Below the pieces are notes generated by a model. The model made no database searches. It saw only the letters and a program-made list of their open reading frames with translations, and was not told where the DNA came from. From Podarcis pityusensis (taxonomy: Eukaryota), in the NCBI GenBank assembly GCA_964106645.2, contig OZ067048.1: a DNA stretch of 64,000 bases; one strand, given 5' to 3'. Position 1 is the first letter of the stretch. Each line of letters opens with the position of its first letter. A program made the translations under genes and the position numbers. Shown piece after piece: positions 1,381 through 63,343 of this stretch.

Positions 1381-4099
1381 AAGTAGACTAGAGAGGTTTG
1401 TGCTCGTGTGAGTTTAAAAACTGCTTAGAGAGAGAATTTGTTTTGTATCTAAAGGTCACAGAGCTCACTCTGATCGCTGGAACACTAACAACACATATAC
1501 TGTATAGTCAGAGGAGACCGTGTAAGGTTTATTAAGAGAAAGTCACTAATATTCAAATACTATTAAATTATTTAAAAATCCCAGTTATGCAGTTCGTGTT
1601 CCAACAAGCTATCCATGGTTCAGAACTGGTTTATATATCTTGCCTTTTTAGTAGGTCTCCATTTTACTACTCTGGAACTACCCCATTTGGCCAATGTACG
1701 TTGTTCAAGGTCAGTTGATAAAGGAAGTTATATGACAATCATGAGAATGTATCCTTGATATCATGTCTGATTTTATTGGGTTCTGTAATGGTTTTGCTAA
1801 AGCACATAAATCTATATGGTATAATTCTGTTGAATGGTCCACTAGTGAGTAACTGTTTCAGTGTCTCATTTAAGGCCAGATTTAGACAACATTTTTCATA
1901 TTGACTGCAGATTATTTAAGATGCAATTTGTATATAAGCTAGAGGCATAGAAGTAAACATAGTAGTGAAGTGGGCATGGTACTGCATTCAACCAATTTTT
2001 ATAAATACAGGCATTGGCTCCATACAGGTTACATGGCAAAGTAGTCACTCCGTTATAGCACAGAACAAAGAATTACTGTAACTTCTACCCTGCGGACAGT
2101 ACCCACTCAACATATTCTGAAAATCCAACCTCAGTGCCAACTAACTATCTGGAGATCACTAAGCTTCCCTAAAAGAGGAGGTGGGTAGCTAAGACACTGC
2201 AAATATTCATTTATATATTTTATGTTGGGTTTAAAAAATGCAAAAAGAGGAGGAGGAGGAGAGAGAAGTTGGAAGAAAATGAAAAGATGCCTAGAGAAAA
2301 TATAAACATTATAATTTTGACCCAATTGGAATTACAAATATCTGGATGGAAAAGAGTCAGAGAGACTATGATAGTACTATCTCTTCTTGAGTTTAGAAAG
2401 TTTAGTTAGAAAGCCATTGGGATCACTCATGATGGTTTAGGAAGACCCACATCAAACTGAAAAATGTGGTTGCTTAAGCAATGCCCATTCATTCAATGGT
2501 CCTAGAGAGCTTCATTTATTTGCCAAGAGTTTTGACCTAACAGGTAAAATATGAAAAGTTTTTTACTCCATCTCTGGAAATTCCTAGCTATTATGCAAGC
2601 CCAAGTTACCACAATATAGAAAAGTCCTGTAAGTAAGTTTCAATTTTTATTCTGTGATAGTGATTCACAGTGATGCCTAAAAGTTCTGGTTTTGCTGAAG
2701 CTCACTTTTATTACTCGCCTAAATGTGTTTTTCAGTTTTCAAATACAAGGAAGATTGTATTCATTGCTACATAAATCACTTATTTTTTTAAGAGGTAGAA
2801 AATATTAGCAAAAGAATAATACGAATGTGGTTGAATGAGTAAAATGAATACATTTTAGATACCCTTTTCTACTCTTTTCCTTTAATGAGAGAGTATCTTT
2901 AAAAGTTCATTATCATATGCAGCTGAATGAGGTGTGTGCTGCGAGTAGTTTGCTGACCTGATTGCAATCCAATGTAAATTCAAAATACAATAATAATTTC
3001 TGTGAAGCACACATATTTCACTCAAAAGTACTGTATGCATTCAAATTACACCCTGAGGTAACATAAAATAGTTGCATCTATTATGAATCCTAATTTTTGG
3101 GAGAACTAAATTTGAATTCCCAAATCTATTATCTGCCACAGTTAAATGGGAGAAAGACTCAGATTAATCAATTTGGATAATGTGTTTTAATTAGGGCAAA
3201 TGTTTCCTGTTTTAAAAATGTGAATGTAAATGTTGATATTTTAAAACATGCTTGGCTACACTTTAATTCTTTATTGTGGTTAGTTTATTGGATAAGCAGC
3301 ACATTTAAAAATACTATTTTAAATTTCATAGTACTGTTTCATAAGCAAAACAAGATTGGTCCCTGCCCACAGACAGCTTAAAATCAGGAGTTGCAGTAAC
3401 TGACTGAATGTCCTTAGGACTAAAAAGTCTGCAAGCTATATGAATCTCACCTGATCCCAAACAAAACTATCTGTGTTCCAGCAGAAGGAGCTGGTACAGC
3501 ATTTGGAAATATGATTGGCCAATCTAATAAAAATATTAGGGCCAAGAGACTTTTGGAATTCTATATGGTGCTGCTGTTTTAGAGTTTGAAATTGAGTGAT
3601 AGAAGACAGAACAGGAACAACTGCAGTAATGAGTCTAGTATAGCCAGGTTCTTGACTAAGAGTAAGATAATGTAAAAGCATGTGGTGATTACTTGTACAT
3701 CTTGGGACTATATGCCCCAGTTGCCCAGGAGCACAAATTCTGGGCACAAGGAACTGTGTGGCTACCCCCAGGCTATAACTTCCCCTAACGCTTGCTATCT
3801 GGCCTGCCACTTTCAATCACAGGGTGAAACATTTTCTATACAACTTTAACATGCTTTCCTTGAGGTATTTCAAGCTAAGACTGAAGCCCAAAGAAGCCTC
3901 TTTTACCTTGTGCTTGATGCTTGTGCAAAGCCAAGAGCAGCAGTGGTTTGAGGGCCTACCAGCTTAGAATTGCCTAAAGGGTGCTTAAAAGAACATACAG
4001 AACACTTAATATAGGTTCTCTACACTTGTTTATTTTCTCACACAAAAAGCCAAGAATAAGCCGCAAATACCTGCACCCTCCCTTAGAATCATAGAATCA

Positions 4100-5130
4100 T
4101 ATTACATCGCCACCAAAGTACACCACATAATCCCATATATTCTAGAAGATGAGACGAAACAGTGGGTCCACTTGGAGAGAGACACCATTGAAAACACCCC
4201 CACAACAGCATAACTACTTTTCCAAAACAAACTAAATAAAATCCCCACAACACTAAACAGCTTCATGCAGTTCACGCTTAAAGCATGGAACGGAAAAGCA
4301 GGCAAACTGTGCCCAGCCCCACTAACACCCGTGGCTCACCACCCACTATTCCAACACACAGCACAAAACCTCCAGATAAAAACCTGGCAAGCCAAAGGTC
4401 TACACCATCTAAAAAACAACAAACCCATACTGACACAAGAAATACAAGACAAATTTGGGGACACCCAAATACCCTGGCTAACACCTTCTTAAACAATACA
4501 GCAGTACCTCCACATGTGGGGGAATGCTCCAAAATCCAACCCTTTGGACAGCAGTCCTACAAGAGATATGCAAAATAACTAAACAGGTATTGGGAGCCAC
4601 CCCAGAACTGGCCCTACTGAACATTTTCCAAGATCATAACGAACACTCACATTATAAAGAGCTTATAAACCACCTACTCTCAGCAGCCAGAAGCCTCATA
4701 GCCAGACAATGGAGAGACCTGTCTGAAGTGAACATGGACCACTGGTACCAAGTTGTATGGGAAACAGCTTTACCAGAAAAGCTAACCAATGGACTGAAAC
4801 TGACACACAGACAAATAGAAGAGGATGCCTTCACTCCAGTATGGCTCCCCTTTATCGCATACACAGCCCAACAAGAACCCACCAATACTATATGAATCAA
4901 TATGGCTTACTTGACCCAACAAACCCCACCCCCTCACAAATACAAACAAACCTCACTACAGCCAACCACAACCAACCAACCCCACCTTGGGCTCCTCCAA
5001 TCCCTCTCACTACCAAGGAAATGTAACAAGTGAATAGAAAGAGAACCTATCCAGTTGATGCTGACACAAAATCCCACATGTACACTATAAAAAAGAGAGT
5101 AAGTTGCACCCCCCTTCTCCCCTTTATTTT
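4100..5130 (+). mobile_element. L1-clade LINE 3' fragment (ORF2 C-terminal region plus 3' UTR), internally deleted
   Basis: A/C-rich strand. Frames encode ..QWVHLE.., ..KTWQAKGLHHL.., YLHMWGECSKIQP(F)WTAVLQEICKIT and HLLSAARSLIARQWR..W.QVVWE, typical of the L1 ORF2 Cys-rich C-terminus. Stops and frameshifts are present. Confidence 0.85.
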
Positions 5131-5464
5131 TCTTCGCTGCCTTTAGAGCATCAATACTCTGTTCCATAGTTCAGAGTGTGAACATTTTTCATGTATAGCC
5201 TGCTGCTTTATACAAGGTACTGTGAATTTGGAGGTACTAAAGCATTGGCAGAAAATTTATATCTCTGGTCCCTTTCTAAAACAACAAAGAGCTATCATTA
5301 TAATACAGCAGCAGCAAGTCTTCCTGAGTTTCCTAAATTGGAAACAAGCTATCTCCACAAATGCAATGTAGATCAGTGAGATTCTCTGCCCTACGGCATT
5401 CTAGCTACTATAAGGCTGCAGGAAAGAAGCAGGCAGTCACACTCTTGAAGTACCCCAAGACTTG

Positions 5465-5810
5465 ATTTATTACTTGTTATATTTACACCTCACTTTTCCA
5501 TTTAAAAAATGGGCAAGTCAACAATAAAATCTACAATAAAAAATAACTAATATACAAAAACAGGTAAGCCACAAGAAAATCAGATAAGAGCAGACAGATT
5601 AAGCAGCTAGTTCAAAAACTAGTTTACAAATGCATATTAAAATGCAGAGCAGCAAAACAAAGCAAGTCAGCCCAGCGGGCCAAATGTTTAAATAAAAAGC
5701 CTTTGCCTATGTGTGAAAGGCTGTCAACAAGAGGGCTAGATGAAGCTTTCTCATAAACTGCTCCAAAGATTAGGTTTGGCCACTGAGAAGGCCCTTCCTC
5801 AAGTACATTT
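5465..5810 (-). mobile_element. Old L2-like LINE 3' end (degenerate)
   Basis: tttattatt..atatttacacctcacttttcc tail-like start and ggccactgagaaggccct motif resemble the reverse strand of squamate L2 3' ends. Confidence 0.4.
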
Positions 5811-6377
5811 CAGATGATACAGAAAGAAAGGCCAATGGATGAGAATTGGGCAGATTGAAAGCTGAGCCCATGCACATGCAGTCTGGCTGTCAAAAGGCAA
5901 CCAGGAGAAGGCAATCCATTATTTTTGGAAACTTCAGTTACTCCTTTGGAAAGGTATGGAGACATTTAATCTGTTCTTCGTGTTGCTTCATCCAACTGTT
6001 GACTGCCCTACCTTTAAACCCTCTCTGGTATTTTGCTGGAGTCTTCTGAAAGTGTGAAAGCTTCCTCAGCTAGTCCAGCTCTGAAATCTTCCCTTTTTAG
6101 CACTTCATTGCTTTTTCAGAAGCCCAGCTCCACCAGCTGCTGGACTGTTTCCTCTCCATACGCTGAGTTTGTTTTAGGAGACAGAAGCACTTCTCTATAG
6201 TATAGTAAAATGTCCATTGAAAAACTAGTTTTAAGGCACCAGAATCTTGGCAGCTCAGCATCATGAGGTTTGATGCTGAAGAGCTTGAAATGGAGTTACT
6301 AGAATTTAGGACCTTTGCTTCATTTTGAAGAAAGAGTTGACTTATACGCTGAATGATTAAAAAGTGTCTTACTAGAT

Positions 6378-6490
6378 CAGCCTTCTCCAAACTGGTGCCC
6401 TCCAAATGCCTCAGACAATGTGGTCAATGGCTGGAACTAATCAGAGTTGCAGTGTAAGACACCTGGAGGGCACCAGGTTGAGGAAGTGAG
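6378..6490. mobile_element. Short palindromic hAT-type MITE (common squamate family)
   Basis: Inverted arms ctggtgccctcca / tggagggcaccag. Confidence 0.6.
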
Positions 6491-7532
6491 CTGGATAAGC
6501 AAGCACAGCTTGTACTGTGCTTCCATATACCTCAGAATACCAGAGGTGATCTCCAAAATTCATTTATACAGCAATTCTATGAAACCTTGCCAACAATCCT
6601 CTTTGGATGTATGCACTGGCAAGGAAAAGGATTATCCTATAAATTATTATGAACTCTACCTGAGCCCATTATTTCGTTAACAAGGTTTCTATATGTAATT
6701 AACTTTCCTGTTAGTGAAGAACCTTGTTACCAGTTGAGTAATAAGCTAATGTTTATTAAATATTTAATTGGCCAGTAATAGGTTATTTTCTCTGGCCAAT
6801 TGTATCACAACTGGGTAGGGTCTGTTATTATCACTGGCCCTTCTTGTGACTTCTCTTTTAAATTGTTACTTGGCCCTGAGTCTTAGGAATAGTGAAAACA
6901 ATAAAAACACTGTTTCTATGGAGACTTCTGTAGTCCTTGGTATGGAGCTATGCTGGAAGGATGCACTTGAAATTTCATTTTGCTGAGCCATCCAGGCAAA
7001 ATTATTACAGTGGCCCAAAGTTTCATGGGATAATCAAGGACTTCATGAAGTGGCAGAAGGGTGGTGATCCAACAGGAACACAAAGTGGAAGAGCATCCAT
7101 TTCTGGCAAGGGTACCAGAAATAGCTTTAATAACAGTTTGGAGGATGTAGTGGAGTCAAACTGAATCATCACTTGCCCTATATTGGGAAAGTGACTTGGG
7201 GTGGAGGAAGTGACGTGACATAAAGGATGTAAAACAGGTAATGTATCTGACATTACTGGTGACTGGTGGGCAGGGGAGGGAGTTACAGTCTTCAAGGACA
7301 GGGATAGTAAAGAGGAAGGATAGATTTAGGGAGGGACTAAGCAACCTTATATCAGGTTTTAACAAAAGCAGAAAGCTGTGAACTTCTGGAGAGCTTTATT
7401 TTAAAGCACTGAAAATGTGACCATGTATCTGGAAGGAGTATCTTTCGTCAACCAACAAATTACTACATTTTGAACATACCCAGAAGAGTGTGGACTGATG
7501 ATTTGCTGGTGTGCTTTTTTCACTCTTAAGTA

Positions 7533-7651
7533 CAGGAATGGCAAACCTCCAAACGTTGCTAGATTCCAACACCCATCATACCTGACCAGTGGACATGCTG
7601 GCTGAGGCTGACATAAGGATCAGAGGGAACATCACAGATGCCTCATCCCTG
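7533..7651. mobile_element. Short palindromic hAT-type MITE
   Basis: caggaatgg..catccctg termini with the family-typical core cccatcat..ctgacc..atgctggctg. Confidence 0.6.
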
Positions 7652-11539: not shown

Positions 11540-12106
11540 TTGTTGTTGTTTAGTCATTTAGTCGTGACCGACTCTTCGTGACCCCATGGACTAGAGCACG
11601 CCAGGCACTCCTGGCTCCCACTGCCTCCCTCAGCTTGGTCAGATTCATGTTTGTAGCTTCGAGAACGCTGTCCAACCATCTCATCCTGTCGTCCCCTTCT
11701 TCTTGTGCCCTCCATCTTTCCCAACATCAGGGTCTTTTCCAGGGAGTCTTCTCTTCTCATGAGGTGGCCAAAGTATTGGAGCCTCAGCTTCACGATCTGT
11801 CCTTCCAGTGAGCACTCGGGGCTGATTTCCTTAAGAATGGATACGTTTGATCTTCTTGTAGTCCATGGGACTCTCAAGAGTCTCCTTCAGCACCATAATT
11901 CAAAAGCATCAATTCTTCGGCGATCAGCCTTCTTGATGGTCCAGCTCTCACTTCTATACATCACTACTGGGAAAACCATGGCTTTAACTATACGGACCTT
12001 TGTTGGCAAGGTGATGTCTCTGCTTTTTAAGATGCTGTCTAGGTTTGCCATCGCCTTTCTCCCAAGGAGCAGGCGTCTTTTAATTTCGTGACTGCTGTCA
12101 CCATCT
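11540..12106 (-). mobile_element. RTE-BovB LINE, 5'-truncated
   Basis: Minus-strand peptide RVPWTTRRSNVSILKEISPECSLEGQIVKLRLQYFGHLMRREDSLEKTLMLGKMEGTRRRGR, (CAA)n tail (ttgttgttg at ~11540), and probable TSD agtttctaaaa at 11528-11538 and 12113-12123. Confidence 0.95.
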
Positions 12107-14042: not shown

Positions 14043-14103
14043 CATACACACACAAACACACAAACACACATATCTATATCTTTATATCTATATATCTATA
14101 TAT
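14043..14103. repeat. Imperfect (CA)n/(TATC/TA)n microsatellite
   Basis: Direct reading. Confidence 0.85.
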
Positions 14104-14108
14104 CAGTA

Positions 14109-14334
14109 CAGTGGTACCTTGGGTTAAGAACTTAATTCGTTCCGGAGGTCCGTTCTCAACCTGAAACTGTTCTTAACCTGAAGCACCACTTTAGCTAATG
14201 GGGCTTCCCACTGCTGCCGCGCCGCCGGAGCATGATTTCTGTTCTCACCCTGAAGCAAAGTTCTTAACCCAAGATACTATTTCTGGGTTAGTGGAGTCTG
14301 TAACCTGAAGCGCCTGTAACCCGAGGTACCACTG
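14109..14334 (+). mobile_element. Tc1/mariner (Tigger/pogo-type) MITE, copy 1
   Basis: TIRs cagtggtacc(t)tgggtta / taacccgaggtaccactg, with TA duplication at 14107-14108 and 14335-14336. Confidence 0.93.
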
Positions 14335-14344
14335 TAGTTGGGGG

Positions 14345-23522: not shown

Positions 23523-23908
23523 CTATTAACTTTTCTAGTCTAATATACAAGGCTGTCTTATTTATTCCTGAATAGTCTGATTATCTATACTCTACAGCAC
23601 TATTGGAAAATGGTGATGAGTTTTAGTAGCTGAAGGCCGTACATGCTTATTTCAGTATACAAGACTAAGGTGCAAATGCAAGATAATCTTAAATTCTCTA
23701 CTTACCAAGAGACAATAAAAGCTAACTAGAGTACTCTTAATATTCCTATCCAATTGATAACTAACTTTCATATGAATCCAACTACAAATATCAGACCTGA
23801 ATAATTATACATTTAAAAGCAAAGAAAGAGTCAGGGTGTTTTTAATATATTAGCCTGACACAACCATCTTGGTTGAAATGCATTTGGTAGCTTGTTCCCT
23901 ACCATGTA

Positions 23909-24138
23909 CAGTGGTACCTCAGGTTACAGACGCTTCAGGTTACAGATGCTTCAGTTACAGACTCCGCTAACCCAGAAATAGTACCTTGGGTTAAGAACTT
24001 TGCTTCAGGATGAGAACAGAAATCGTGCGGTGGCAGCAGGAGGCCCCATTAGTTAAGGTGGTACCTCAGGTTAAGAACAGTTTCAGGTTGAGAACGGACC
24101 TCCAGAACGAATTAAGTTCATAACCCAAGGTACCACTG
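23909..24138 (-). mobile_element. Tigger-type MITE, copy 2 (opposite orientation to copy 1)
   Basis: TIRs cagtggtacctcaggtta / taacccaaggtaccactg, TA TSD at 23907-23908 and 24139-24140; interior is the reverse complement of 14109-14334. Confidence 0.93.
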
Positions 24139-24266
24139 TATTCATTTCTTCTGGCGGTTACATAGCCATTTTCAGATGTCCCTTGATCCTGCTACATCCT
24201 CCCCCCACCCCCGGGAAGCTGGGCTCAGGAGTCCTATCCATGATGGGACAGAATATTATACTGTGG

Positions 24267-30885: not shown

Positions 30886-31216
30886 GGGTGGTGCTGTGGG
30901 TTAAACCACAGAGCCTAGGGCTTGCTGATCAGAAGGTCGGCGGTTCGAATCCCCGCGACGGGGTGAGCTCCCGTTGTTCGGTCCCTGTTCTTGTCAACCT
31001 AGCAGTTCGAAAGCACGTCAAAGCACAAGTAGATAAATAGGTACCGCTCCAGCGGGAAGGTAAACAGCATTTCCATGCACTGCTCTGGTTCACCAGAAGC
31101 GGCTTAGTCATGCTGGCCACATGACTCGGAAGCTGTACGCCAGCTCCCTCGGCCAGTAAAGCAACCCCAGAGTCATCTGTGACTGGACCTATCGGTCAGG
31201 AGTCTCTTTACCTTTA
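30886..31216 (+). mobile_element. Sauria SINE
   Basis: tRNA-like head with B-box ggttcgaatcc, conserved body gcagttcgaaagcac..caagtagataaataggtacc, and (ACCTTT) tail. Confidence 0.93.
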
Positions 31217-32320: not shown

Positions 32321-33364
32321 TGCTTGATCTTCAGAAACATATATAAATAAGCTGCTCTGAGGATTAATGCAAAAGTGGTTCTGGATTTATTTATTTTTAA
32401 GATTGGACAACCTGCAATCCAGTACAATGCCACTAATGAACATTTCTAGCAATCTTATTACCTGAAGACTGGCAAGTAGCTTTCATGAAGAGCAACCAAA
32501 TAGTTAGCTATATGAGTGATTATGGGTCAATTTTTGCTCAAAGCAAAGGTGGCTGCTAAAGTTTCAAACACATCTGTTTGGTCTCTAATTCATTTGCTGC
32601 CAGAAAATCGGAGAACGTGGTATGCAATAGGGAAGTCCCAGGTTCATTTTACTAACAATATGCTTGATGAATCCAATGTATTTTTAATCCAAGTGTAAAA
32701 CTCTAAGGACAGCCAAGGTGCTGACTAGAGCATGAAAATCTAAATGAATATTCTGCCAGAATGACAGTACTTAAACAACCAAAGTCTCACCCCAGGCGAT
32801 AAGCCTTCTGCAAAATTCATAATCTATATATAGTTATTGTAAAAATTGTGATTTCATGGAGAAAGTAATTCACAAATCATAATTAGTGCAGTTCCCTGTA
32901 GATGACCAAATGCTAAATGTATCTCTACATTTTTGTGATTTAAAAACAAAGCTTTATAATTTGGTAATGTATTACCACAGATGTACATTACAATGATCAC
33001 ATTTTTCAATATATCAAGGAATGAATTCTTCCTTCATTGACATTATTTTAGAATCAGCCTAGCCACTAAAGACTCAGAGCAGAAAGCGGGGCAAAACTAA
33101 ACTTGAGGCTTTGGGAATTTTCAGGCAAGACGTCAGTATTTTAGACTACAGCCAGTAGCCAATGCTGGCTTGGTGGTGCTCATCTGACCTCTGTTTGGGC
33201 ACATTGCTGCTGCTTACCAGAAAATGGGGGGAAGGGCAAGATGGCAACACACCCATCTACTTTTCAGTAAGCAGTAGCAATGCAACGAACCAGAGGTCAA
33301 GTGAATGTCACCTCCCCAACTACATTGTTTGTTACCATTGCCATCATTTTTAAAAATTTATATA

Positions 33365-33580
33365 CAGTGGTACATCAGGTTAAGAACTTAATTCGTTCTG
33401 GAGGTCCATTCTTAACCTGAGGTACCACTTTACCTAATGGGGCCTCCCGCTGCCGCCGCCACGCGATTTCTGTTCTCATCCTGAAGCAAAGTTCTTAACC
33501 CGAGGTACTATTTCTGGGTTAGCGGAGTCTGTAACCTGAAGTGTCTGTAACCTGAAGCATCTGTAACCGAGGTACCACTG
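33365..33580 (+). mobile_element. Tigger-type MITE, copy 3
   Basis: TIRs cagtggtacatcaggtta / taaccgaggtaccactg, TA TSD at 33363-33364 and 33581-33582. Confidence 0.93.
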
Positions 33581-33779
33581 TACTTCCAGAATCATGCTGC
33601 TAAACCTTTCGCCTTTCTGAGAATCTGGGGGCAGCAGCTGGCAGGCTCCTTGGTGTAAGTCAATATTGCCAAACACAATGCATATTATACTAGGTGACTT
33701 TCATCTGTGATATGCAACTTTAATTTGAGTTTTCTGGATAGAGTCTCACATATGTTTTATAAACATTCATGCCATAAAG

Positions 33780-41057: not shown

Positions 41058-41426
41058 GGGACGCGGGTGGCGCTATGGTCTAAACCACTGAGACTCTTGG
41101 GCTTGCCAATCAGAAGGTCGGCGGTTCGAATCCCCGCAACGGGGTGATCTCCCATTGCCCAGTCCCAGCTCCAAGTGCTCCACGTCCAAGTGCAAGTAGA
41201 TAAATAGGTACCGCTCCAGCGGGAAGGTAAATAGCATTTCCGTGCTCTGCTCTGGTTTCGGTGTTCCGTTGCGCCAGAAGCGGCTTGGTCATGCTGGCTA
41301 CATGACCCAGGAAAACTGTCTGCAGACAAACGCCGGCTCCCTTGGCCTATAAAGCGAGATGAGCACCACAACCCGAGTCGTCTGTGACTGGACTTAACTG
41401 TCAGGGGTCCTTTACTTTTACCATTT
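41058..41426 (+). mobile_element. Full-length Sauria SINE with 12-bp TSD
   Basis: gggacgcgggtggcgct head, B-box ggttcgaatcc, tail tttacttttacc; TSD tacttactcagg at 41046-41057 and 41427-41438. Confidence 0.95.
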
Positions 41427-41910: not shown

Positions 41911-42223
41911 AGATCAAACCTATCCATTCTTAAGGAAATCAGCCCTGAGTGCTCACTGGAAGGACAGATCGTGAAGCTGAGGCTCCAATACTTTGGCCAC
42001 CTCATGAGAAGAGAAGACTCCCTGGAAAAGACCCTGATGTTGGGAAAGATAGAGGGCACAAGGAGAAGGGGATGACAGAGGACGAGATGGTTGGACAGAG
42101 TTCTTGAAAATACCAGCATGAGTTTGACCAAACTGCGGGAGGCTGTGGAAGACAGGAGTGCCTGGCGTGCTCTGGTCCATGGGGTCACGAAGAGTCAGAC
42201 ACGACTAAACGACTAAACAACAA
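41911..42223 (+). mobile_element. RTE-BovB LINE, 5'-truncated
   Basis: Encodes RSNLSILKEISPECSLEGQIVKLRLQYFGHLMRREDSLEKTLMLGKIEG; tail acgactaaacgactaaacaacaa; closely similar to the copy at 11540-12106. Confidence 0.95.
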
Positions 42224-43268: not shown

Positions 43269-43449
43269 TGCTGCATGTGCTGTTTTGGTTGGATTCCAAC
43301 AGAGCCCACTTTGCTGTTGTCAGTGATGGAGGAGAGTGAGAAAATAGGTTGCAAATAGGTGAAATACACTATTCCACGTAACACGTTTGTTTCCCAGGAA
43401 CTGTTAAAACAGGAGCTACAGTTGCTAGTAACCTTATTTATGCCTTGAA

Positions 43450-43507
43450 CGGGGTTGGACTAGATGACCCTTTTGGACCCTTCCAACTCTACAATTATAT
43501 GATTATA
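43450..43507 (+). mobile_element. CR1 extreme 3' tail
   Basis: gggttggactagatgacc..cccttccaactctacaattatatgatt. Confidence 0.85.
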
Positions 43508-43539
43508 TTCAGCAATTCCATCCCAGATTTCTCTCTTCA

Positions 43540-45588
43540 TTTTTTTTAAATGATATTTATTGAGAAATTTTTTAAAATTACACACAAAAAAAGAGACAAG
43601 ACAAAAAAAAGAAAAAGAAAAGTAAAACCATCATTCTCCAATTCTCCACTTTCAATACCTTCTTTCCTTGACCTCCTCCTCCTCCCTTTTCCTGTATCCT
43701 GATTTATAATAGTCACAGCAAATCCTTTCCATAATTCATAATATTCTGTCCTTACATTACCTTAGTCTATTTTTATCTTATCTTATATATAAAAAAAGTT
43801 TAAAATTTAAATCTTAATTTTTACCAACTTCTCCTAACCATAACATTCTTACCTAATTCTTTAAACATTTTTATAAGAGCCAAATAATTTCATTTCAACA
43901 TTTTCCTAACATTCATCAATCTTGTAAAACAGTCCTAATGATAGAAATAGAAACTTAAGCAATCCAAACTTCCTCCAGCGTCCCTTCCTCCTGGTCCCGG
44001 GTTTTGTCAGTCCTTTTTGTCCTATTAATCTAGCACATTAACCTGGCAATCTTATATCCGAGGCCCTCAAGTCTCTTCCATGTCCCTTCCACAGCTCTTC
44101 TTCATATTTTCCTTTTATTCGTGGGAACTCCAGCTTGGTAATGTTTTTGACCCTTTTCAACCAAACAGTCCCTTTTCCATAGTCCAGACTAGACTCGATG
44201 TAGTATTTAAAAACATGTTCCAGATTTCCTTCAAAGTTGAAAGCCCCCACTGCTCCAGACATCTGACGGCCCCTTTCCAGACTCGAAAAGTCCAAATCTC
44301 CCTGTATAGGGGGGGTCTATCCACCCCCCCATTTCCAAACCAAACCAAATTTTTTATTTCCAAGTCTGGTCTTTTCCAAGTTCATTTGTCAAATCCAAAA
44401 TTTTATATTCCTGCTGGGCCGCAGCTCCTTCCGTCTCTGGCGTCCAAGATTCAGCAGAATCCTCATCTCTCAGCTGTTCTGTCATGACACGCTCCTGTTT
44501 TAGTTCCTGGGTGGGCTCCATATAGTTTCCCACTACCTGTTCAAAGGTTCTGGCCGCATTCGTCATCAAATCCGTCTTCTGGCTTAACTGATCCAATAGG
44601 GCATTTATTTTGCAGAAAGCACCCAACAGTGCTTCTGCAGACATTGTCCTACAAGGTCACAAACCCTTTCCCACGGTTGTAATCAGTGACAGCTGCAAGC
44701 TCCCAGGGATTAGTTACAATTTCACAGTTCCCCTCTAGGGGGAAAAACTTCTGATTGTTCTTTCTCTTAAAAACAATAGCAACAAAGTTTCTTTTTTAAG
44801 AGATTTTGTCCATATTTGTTCTTTTAAGATGCGAAAGGGAGCAATGGAGTCACGATGTTTCTCTTCTTTTAACTATCTGTCAAAGACATTTGTTTCTGGT
44901 CAGTGAGCTTCAAACGTCAATTCTGACACCCCGCTCCAGGATCAGGACGGTGGAAAATTACTTTGCTTTAGATTCACTTCTGCAGGTTTAAACAGCTCGA
45001 AAAAAGCTCCCCCTTCTTCTCCTGCTACCGAAGGGGGATTCAGCGATTTTAAATGATGAAAGTCAATCCTTTAAGAGTGATTTTTAAAGCTCTAGTTTGC
45101 GTTGTCTTTGCTTTGTTCTGGCTACAGGGAAACGGAAGGCTGACTTCCTGTTTAAACCTTTCCGTTTCAGTACCAAATTAGGGTAAATTTTTAAGTCCAA
45201 ATTCCTTTCTATTTCTCCAGTTCTTATTTAAATTCCAGATATTCAATGTTCCAGTACTCACGGTTGGTTATTTTAGATGCCAAATTGTCCCAGGAAAAAG
45301 GCAGCGCTCTCCGGCAACGGCTATGCGGCTTCGCTCCGCAGGAAAAGCGATTGACTCACAGCACCGTGCCACTTCCCCCTCTTTACTTCGGAGCCCGTTT
45401 GTGGGTTCCTTTGCGGGTTGGGGGGGCGCTAAGGGTGCCCGCCGAGTCCCACGGTCACAGGCTTCATCCGCCTGTGATTTCCAGAAGGGTCCCCGCTTCG
45501 CCGCAGCGGAAAAGACCCGTTTCATGCGGAGCTGGTCCCTCCAGTTCGGAGGGAGTCCGCCATTGCCGATGGCGCCACCCCGGAAGTC
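43540..45588 (-). mobile_element. Complete ~2.05-kb non-autonomous L1-like retroelement (HAL1-like; no ORF2)
   Basis: Minus-strand 5' end gacttccggggtggcgccatcggcaatggcgg (CpG-rich, L1-type). 3' end has AATAAA and poly(A) (read as T-run and tttattg on +). TSD tcccag(a/c)tttctctcttca at 43521-43539 and 45589-45607 (18/19 identical). Only short broken ORFs at 44038-44644; no endonuclease or RT motifs. Confidence 0.85.
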
Positions 45589-45714
45589 TCCCAGCTTTCT
45601 CTCTTCAAAGAGTGCTGGTGTAATTGCAAAGGAAATAAACTATCAAACAAAATGAGATCTATCTTTTTTTCTTATGCATCACAGGTCAAACATGAGGGTG
45701 GGGATCCATTATTT

Positions 45715-47291: not shown

Positions 47292-47556
47292 CTCTAATTT
47301 CTTTGTCTTGTGAGGAACTATAGAGTGTGGGGCATACTAAATGTTAAACTGCAGTTGACCTTTCCCCACTACAGAATACCTTCTGGGGAAACAATTTGCA
47401 TTGGGGAAAAGATAGGGGAAGGGCATGCTTGATCCTTCCCCTAACAGATATGTTTCACTGAAATCTTCCCAGGTTTTAACCCCACCAGTGTTCCAGGGCT
47501 GTGTTTAGCATTCCTCACAAACATGAGCCTGGAACCTTAGGGCATAAGTGTCTCCT

Positions 47557-47914
47557 TAAAGGTAAAGGTACCCCTGCCCGTACGGGCCAGTCTTGACAGA
47601 CTCTAGGGTTGTGCGTTCATCTCACTCTAGAGGCCAGCAGCCAGCGCTGTCCGCAGACACTTCCGGGTCACGTGGCCAGTGTGACAAGCTGCATCTGGCG
47701 AGCCAGCGCAGCACCCGGAACCCCGTTTACCTTCCCGCTAGTAAGCAGTCCCTATTTATCTACTTGCACCCAGGGGTGCTTTCGAACTGCTAGGTTGGCA
47801 GGCGCTGGGACCGAGCGACGGGAGCGCACCCCGCCGCAGGGATTCGAACTGCCAACCTTTCGATCGGCAAGTCCTAGGCGCTGAGGCTTTTACCCACAGC
47901 GCCACCCGCGCCCC
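47557..47914 (-). mobile_element. Full-length Sauria SINE (different subfamily)
   Basis: (AAAGGT)n tail at 47557, ctatttatctacttgcac..gctttcgaactgctaggttggcagg body, ggattcgaac B-box and cagcgccacccgcgcccc head. Confidence 0.93.
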
Positions 47915-63090: not shown

Positions 63091-63343
63091 CCTGCTCCTG
63101 CCAACCTAGCAGTTCGAAAGCACGTCAAAGTGCAAGTAGATAAATAGGTACCACTCCGGTGGGAAGGTAAACGGCCTTTCTATGCGCTGCTCTGGTTCGC
63201 CAGAAGCGGCTTAGTCATGCTGGCCACATGACCCGGAAGCTGTACGCTGGCTCCCTCGGCCAATAAAGCGAGATGAGCGCCGCAACCCCAGAGTTGGCCA
63301 CGACTGGACCTAATGGTCAGGGGTCCCTTTACCTTTTTTTACC
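63091..63343 (+). mobile_element. Sauria SINE, 5'-truncated
   Basis: Body closely similar to 30886-31216; tail ccctttacctttt. Confidence 0.92.

Follow-up and report, generated by a model that had tools for sequence, protein, structure and literature searches.

How does an L1-type retroelement with both native ends and no reverse transcriptase come to be inserted in a lizard genome? The question is raised by a 2049-bp insert on the minus strand of a 64,000-nucleotide stretch of Podarcis pityusensis DNA (hereafter, the window), at positions 43540-45588. The insert is free of N and is bracketed by a 19-bp target-site duplication with one mismatch, the 5' copy at 45589-45607 and the 3' copy at 43521-43539. 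These coordinates were re-measured and are the same as those in the original prediction, which was made from the letters of the window and described a half-L1 (HAL1-like) parasite. The target site reads TT/TGAAG on the element strand, in keeping with the predicted compatibility with L1 endonuclease. Taken as a whole, the analysis makes it probable (roughly 0.7) that the insert belongs to a family that arose once from L1, is mobilised in trans, and encodes a selected protein without RNA binding.

Anatomy of the insertion

The element begins with a 944-nt 5' UTR (44645-45588; ~0.95 kb had been predicted) that is collinear with L1 5' UTRs (65% identity over 999 columns to L060, an autonomous L1 of the same genome). 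Its outermost part (45262-45588) is a CpG-rich L1-type 5' end that likely acts as an internal Pol II promoter. This segment is 83% identical to L060, its sister in the 5' tree, and 77% identical to a second autonomous L1, L052; the first 340 nt of the UTR have 61% GC and a CpG observed/expected ratio of 0.89. A 607-nt frame follows (44644-44038), which would encode an ORF1p-derived protein of 201 aa if intact. In the window copy this frame is broken, as predicted, by a stop at codon 97 (44356-44354) and by one extra base at codon 110 (near 44315). The description does not carry over to the family, because the frame is open in 17 of 30 copies picked by DNA (16 at 201-203 aa, one reading through to 245 aa).

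About 500 nt lie behind the stop, all of which had been read as 3' UTR. This reading stands for 43548-43905, which is an L1-type 3' UTR, but not for 43906-44037, where comparison with L1 identifies the last ~130 nt of ORF2 as a decayed, untranslated stub. The expected AATAAA (43561-43556) and an 8-nt poly(A) tail (A8, 43540-43547) complete the element. A very abundant short repeat lies at 43436-43505, just beyond the 3' duplication.

A family of full-length copies

A DNA search of the insert's own genome (1.5 Gb) gave 6781 candidates, 40 of which were scored. Thirty-six, including the window copy, are collinear and full length with 91-100% identity. First-look candidates, at 3,399-7,575 per query, are not copy numbers. 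The existence of at least 35 further full-length copies, 91-98% identical to the window copy, identifies a family rather than a one-off deletion. Among 30 loci examined, 26 carry a duplication of at least 10 bp (11-25 bp), each different. A looser script also finds a duplication for L020 and L025, and finds none for L007 and L022. The cut sites of these loci are loose and T-rich/A-rich, and mostly one to three extra G residues stand at the 5' end. Different duplications, a loose T/A-rich cut site and extra 5' G are what target-primed reverse transcription leaves when it copies capped full-length RNA.

Whether other copies contain ORF2 was tested by tblastn with this genome's L1 ORF2p (1246 aa, E<1), which matches 0 of 30 copies; the ~130-nt stub is all that is present of ORF2. 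The absence of endonuclease and reverse transcriptase coding noted for the window copy is therefore shared by the copies examined. The full-length copies, their L1-type ends and the missing ORF2p bear out the proposal of a non-autonomous, ORF1-only family derived from L1, and the collinear ~2-kb structure with differing duplications is the one that had been anticipated.

L1-type ends and a candidate intron

Autonomous L1s in the same genome have an ORF1 of 351-371 aa and an ORF2 of ~1245 aa, and both ends of the short element match them. Identity is 74-83% over the first 335 nt and ~60% over the end of ORF2 together with the 3' UTR. Four of these L1s (L051, L052, L055 and L060), which unlike the short element are 6.2 kb long and encode a basic 351-371-aa ORF1p and a 1245-aa ORF2p, are placed by UTR length only in the long-5'UTR lizard L1s, clade 1 of Boissinot and Sookdeo 2016. 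As this clade is described in the available portion of that paper (PMC5381506), it shares with the short element a long CpG-rich 5' UTR, a 3' UTR, a short poly(A) and a homologous ORF1.

The 5' UTRs of autonomous L1s and short elements (L051, L052, L060 and L147-L174) have donor-like and acceptor-like splice sites ~520 nt apart. In the window they delimit a candidate 5' UTR intron (44735-45261, minus strand), with a donor-like GTGAGT at 45261 and an acceptor-like pyrimidine run plus AG at 44735. The acceptor-like site occurs in all 28 UTRs compared, and a donor-like site stands at the aligned place in 22 of them. The conservation of these sites suggests a retained intron. Spliced retrocopies were seen in 0 of 117 pairs of copies chosen as best full-length matches. 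Low-depth raw reads of another organism (126-147 per run, mixed with L1 and other subfamilies) include no joint at the candidate intron. An 85-aa upstream frame in the 5' UTR was rejected as a conserved ORF, as it is not kept in L1 or in other subfamilies.

One origin and probable exchange of ends

Searches for divergent homologues revealed further subfamilies, which are represented here by 23 single copies taken from intact frames. Their proteins are 21-90% identical to the short-element protein P0001. Where both ends could be placed the elements measure 1.9-2.25 kb; they have duplications and open frames of 196-227 aa. An N-terminal loss, a deletion within the RRM and the ORF1-to-ORF2 junction are common to all 23 representatives. 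Because these losses and this junction are shared across such a range of identity, the short elements appear to have a single origin, through internal deletions in a lizard L1, and to have radiated widely. The protein tree likewise places all 23 on one side of a branch from four L1s with support of 100, subject to a long-branch warning. The G and M groups retain a CTD hairpin but are missing more of the RRM; all other subfamilies have lost the hairpin.

In a tree of the first 335 nt, the representatives interleave with L1 lineages (AU p 1.9e-6). The window's group falls beside L060, and G falls inside the L051/L160 group. The 3' ends are also non-monophyletic (p 2.2e-5), a result that is due to J. 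The simplest reading of these trees is that ends have repeatedly been exchanged with living L1s, in one direction or the other. Loci L180 and L176 encode the same J1 protein behind different 5' ends, that of L180 being L060-like, and they seem to record a recent promoter swap.

A shortened ORF1p

The frame descends from L1 ORF1p. A family profile matches that of lizard L1 ORF1p end to end (hhalign, 98.7%, E 3.7e-16). On the L1 ORF1p profile, H1-H4, the least-changed subfamilies, score 72-101 bits, and the best of 460 shuffles and of 23 reversals reach 6.4 and 7.2 bits. P0001 alone scores only 9.3 bits, near the shuffles, so the case for descent of the family is carried by H1-H4. The DNA of H1-H4 aligns to L1 in collinear blocks with jumps at L052 positions 1574-1701, 1836-1888 and 1950-5715, the last of which removes 3.76 kb and creates a stop codon.

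Compared to L1 ORF1p, the basic N-terminal 47 residues, RRM elements beta3-alpha2-beta4 (42 codons), the CTD hairpin (17 codons) and the tail have been lost. The second of these deletions could be placed on the RRM because a model of lizard L1 ORF1p matches the human ORF1p trimer (E 2.8e-10). All 87 ORFs examined in subfamilies A-E and G encode acidic products (pI 4.5-6.9, versus 7.7-9.1 in four L1 ORF1p); the deep representatives J2, H4 and M1 are basic (pI 8.5-9.0). In human ORF1p, according to an excerpt of PMC5940361, RNA is bound by the RRM and CTD, and the N-terminus must be positively charged. Given these requirements, the deleted parts and the mostly acidic product, RNA binding is predicted to have been lost in the short-element protein.

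The clade is one that domain searches miss. No Pfam family reaches its cut-off for P0001 or for the pieces of the window frame, no Pfam L1 family is found for lizard L1 ORF1p itself, and database homologues are hypothetical Podarcis proteins. PF02994 has no match anywhere in the genome, controls included, which makes that search uninformative. A PDB sequence search with P0001 gave 0 matches, and the best ESM Atlas scores (0.83 for P0001; 0.91 for H1, with an unnamed match) are leads only. AlphaFold2 models the 201-aa protein with a mean pLDDT of 38 and a helix at residues 3-41. In two Podarcis gene models, P0008 and P0009, a TRIM RING/B-box is joined to sequence from L1 ORF1p (63%, covering 74% of the query); each fusion is either an annotation artefact or an exonisation.

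Selection on the frame

The majority sequences of ten subfamilies contain 0 fixed stops, against ~13.6 expected. Most subfamilies were found by protein, a route that favours open frames; A and F, which were chosen by DNA, have open majority frames too. One subfamily, found by DNA with a broken copy as the starting point, has an open majority frame of 220 codons. Omega is 0.63 across A-G (2dL 12.9). For A-E and G, which are close to one another, fixed and private changes cannot be told apart (Fisher p 0.61), and the fixed ones stand at 0.72 of the neutral rate.

Across the 23 representatives, omega is 0.56 overall, 0.39 in codons 1-30, 0.65 in the middle and 0.12 in the last 11 codons, the last being a low estimate since this peptide was chosen after it was seen to be conserved and is partly required by the ORF picker. 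L1 ORF1, by comparison, has an omega of 0.22. HAL1 ORF1 reportedly evolves faster than L1 ORF1, a finding ascribed to Bao and Jurka in 2010.

The N-terminal segment, about codons 1-45 (44510-44644 in the window), has a heptad pattern that persists in 23 of 23 representatives and includes the helix of the low-confidence model. Heptad proteins of the family contain 7- and 14-residue duplications, and the seemingly different N-terminus of some matches is actually a 14-residue duplication. At the other end is the peptide (D/E)LRASD(I/L/V)RxPG plus stop (44038-44073), which was made at the ORF1-to-ORF2 deletion junction and descends from the L1 ORF1p tail, where it is non-terminal. It ends exactly at the stop in all 23 representatives. 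Synonymous sites within it vary freely, which indicates that it is kept as protein. The last residue is Gly in 21 of 23, with an R-x-x-G or K-x-x-G ending in 21 of 23; M1 and M2 end in Asp, yet retain the core R-A-S-D upstream.

These patterns show that purifying selection keeps the frame, acting on the heptads of the N-terminus and on the C-terminal peptide, and that this selection is weak among close subfamilies. The family would provide a natural deletion series of ORF1p, in which a parasite must keep heptads and a terminal peptide and can drop RNA binding.

Relation to known elements

HAL1 elements of mammals, as outlined in parts of PMC5753468 and PMC5786205, are likewise L1-derived, non-autonomous and amplified as families, and encode only an ORF1p derivative. 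The lizard family shares the following features with HAL1 and ORF1-present bipartite L1s: L1 ends, an ORF1p-derived protein, no ORF2p, amplification of the whole unit together with duplications and poly(A), and a selected frame. It differs in having a lizard rather than a mammalian host, one origin, at least 23 subfamilies and swapped L1 ends. HAL1b ORF1p, from an excerpt of PMC7586669, has a coiled coil, an RRM and a CTD, whereas the lizard protein is mostly acidic and has lost its basic N-terminus, half of the RRM and a portion of the CTD. The 42-codon RRM deletion is present in 23 of 23 representatives, and the CTD hairpin is lost except in G and M. The family therefore functions like HAL1 and falls within its broad definition, but lacks the three-domain ORF1p of HAL1b. 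Earlier annotation in repeat libraries is possible. No reptile half-L1 was found in the open-access literature searched, and the words HAL1, non-autonomous and splicing are absent from the available portion of Boissinot and Sookdeo 2016 (PMC5381506). ORF1-only L1 parasites are known from mammals; the clade described here, from a lacertid lizard, is young and abundant and has radiated deeply.

HeT-A (Jockey clade) and Ag-Sponge (CR1 clade) are also ORF1-only and are thought to multimerise with their helper's protein, as stated in part of PMC5786205. They belong to other LINE clades, and the lizard element is dispersed with no fixed target. L1TD1 is an ORF1p derivative that an excerpt of PMC4161310 proposes to act via its coiled coil on L1 ORF1p; it is a host gene, in contrast to a mobile selfish element. 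Human SpIREs (PMC5860796, in part) are similarly shortened L1s with both ends and have 5' UTR splice sites. They are dead ends, whereas the lizard family still carries its candidate intron, continues to amplify and has deletions that are not bounded by GT-AG. Two other assignments were rejected. An ordinary 5'-truncated L1 lacks the 5' end and keeps the 3' part of ORF2, and the lizard copies have the native 5' end; an ORF-less bipartite LINE of the RIME or Bov-A type does not fit the open frames of the DNA-picked copies.

A model for mobilisation

RNA of the element would be made by Pol II from the L1-type 5' end, translated, and then copied by L1 ORF2p in trans through target-primed reverse transcription. 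The duplications, the relaxed T/A-rich target and the absence of a reverse transcriptase all point to such trans-mobilisation. Promoters of current L1s would be captured repeatedly by template switching. The shrunken protein is predicted to act by protein contact instead of RNA binding. If a protein without RNA binding is nonetheless selected in cis, it must act near its own message, and the most economical model is co-translational coiled-coil joining with ORF1p. The heptad helix would join L1 ORF1p coiled coils on its own polysome and so bring the element RNA into L1 particles, a proposal to which we give slightly less than even odds. Multimerisation with the helper's protein has been proposed for HAL1 and HeT-A (Kojima 2018, PMC5786205, in part).

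When residues 1-64 are modelled in complex with two L1 coiled coils, the score is 0.37, versus 0.00 for the best of three controls, with 88% contact agreement and a partner pLDDT of at least 70. Of solved pairs, 51 of 78 reach the mark applied to such models, as do 2 of 108 mismatched pairs; passes at or below 0.60 comprise only 5 of the 78 solved pairs and all 4 mismatches that passed, and are more often wrong than right. The model weakly supports coiled-coil joining and may reflect likeness to the solved ORF1p trimer; none of the controls was chosen to be a coiled coil. Studies of human ORF1p (an excerpt of PMC5940361) indicate that RRM-adjacent heptads are needed for trimers and that the N-terminal heptads are metastable and cannot trimerise alone. 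Subfamily A retains mainly N-terminal heptads, which counts against the coiled-coil model.

The terminal peptide may be a C-degron, an arrest peptide or a binding motif. A bolder and rather unlikely extension of coiled-coil joining pictures a self-sustaining clade of L1 parasites. Its RNA-binding-free lure protein would carry an ORF1p-joining coiled coil, the terminal peptide would hold the nascent chain to the RNA that encodes it or time its decay, and promoters would be retaken from active L1s. If true, this would be a third route to the L1 machinery, besides the ribosome docking of Alu and the intact ORF1p of HAL1. The deletion series of ORF1p bears on the open question of how parasites overcome the cis preference of L1 proteins.

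Several other explanations deserve comparison with coiled-coil joining. Translation itself may be what matters, with an open 200-codon frame holding the RNA on ribosomes and shielding it from decay while the peptide is disposable and its C-terminal -PG marks it for destruction. Stops have been purged while most residues drift, and the 21 of 23 Gly ends resemble the -PG (KLHDC10) and RxxG (APPBP2) C-degrons described in part of PMC7458402. This account does not explain the heptads in 23 of 23 representatives, their 7- and 14-residue duplications and omega of 0.39, or the invariant R-A-S-D, which sits before the Gly end and also persists in the Asp-ended M1 and M2; we hold it to be a minority possibility. 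More doubtful is a ribosome stall at the stop caused by the C-terminal peptide, which would tether the nascent coiled coil to its own RNA and pull both into L1 particles. The peptide presumably resembles known arrest peptides ending in R-x-P/G. Its invariable position at the stop, its conservation as protein and the missing RNA-binding parts all suit a tether, but the motif comes from the tail of L1 ORF1p, where it is not terminal.

Less likely again is dominant-negative action, in which the protein poisons L1 ORF1p trimers and frees ORF2p for the RNA of the short element. Its anatomy is the same as in the model proposed for L1TD1 (PMC4161310, in part), and the complex model also lends it weak support. 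However, L1s of this genome are abundant and young, and a diffusible inhibitor would help all competing RNAs, which makes it a poor account of selection in cis. The least probable explanation by far is that an ordinary L1 suffered a single deletion, or that the element is a spliced L1 retrocopy (SpIRE). The L1-like ends speak for it, but a one-off event is refuted: there are 35 other full-length copies, and junctions are shared across subfamilies of 21-90% identity. The SpIRE identity was rejected on the junctions mapped on present-day L052, which have no GT-AG: the deleted pieces lack an initial GT and no pyrimidine tract precedes the rejoining, although the ancestral L1 may have differed.

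Empty site and age

The empty site sought in other organisms was seen in contigs of two runs. In run X10, an 856-nt contig covers 43275-43527 and resumes at 45596, skipping 2068 bases that equal the element plus one duplication. Run X13 has a matching joint of 43507 to 45589, and in both runs the duplicated sequence is present as a single copy. Contigs of runs X1 and X5 enter the 5' end of the element by 25-26 letters, which fits a filled site and is below the 31-letter threshold. Copies of the family diverge by 0.7-2.5% from their own majority sequence. This low divergence and the empty site in X10 and X13 identify the window element as a recent insertion of a young family. Relative to its flank, the element has far higher summed contig depth in X1 and X5, and the excess is much smaller in X13 and X10; depth is not copy number, and the contrast hints at a lineage-limited burst. 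Recent, lineage-limited insertions are usable markers for wall-lizard phylogeny.

Neighbouring and nested repeats

An intact H1-type element, L214, with a 227-aa frame (G000:C11:28217306-28217950), lies ~5 kb past the end of the window. Short elements are found inside L1 copies at L053, L049, L104 and L190. That in L053 is in sense orientation within ORF1, with a 15-bp duplication, and that in L049 is antisense within ORF2. Two short elements or L1-type 5' ends are adjacent or nested at L043, L075 and L108; at L075 the second 5' end directly follows the duplication. A young Gypsy/chromodomain LTR retrotransposon is present in two copies, 99.5% identical, at L036, 3' of the short element, and at L049, and one of them occupies the poly(A) position of a short element. 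The long frames beside L036 and L049 belong to this unrelated Gypsy element and were rejected as part of the short element. At L141, the sequence before a 5'-shortened F copy resembles what we take to be the start of U6 snRNA, a possible U6 chimera.

Other repeats in the window include dispersed SINE-like copies, presumably of the Sauria type, at 30903-31215, 41081-41420, 47556-47892 and 63091-63336. A family of short inverted-repeat elements is found at 14102-14341, 23902-24145 and 33358-33582, and a 310-bp repeat pair (88-97%) at 11543-11853 and 41911-42223.
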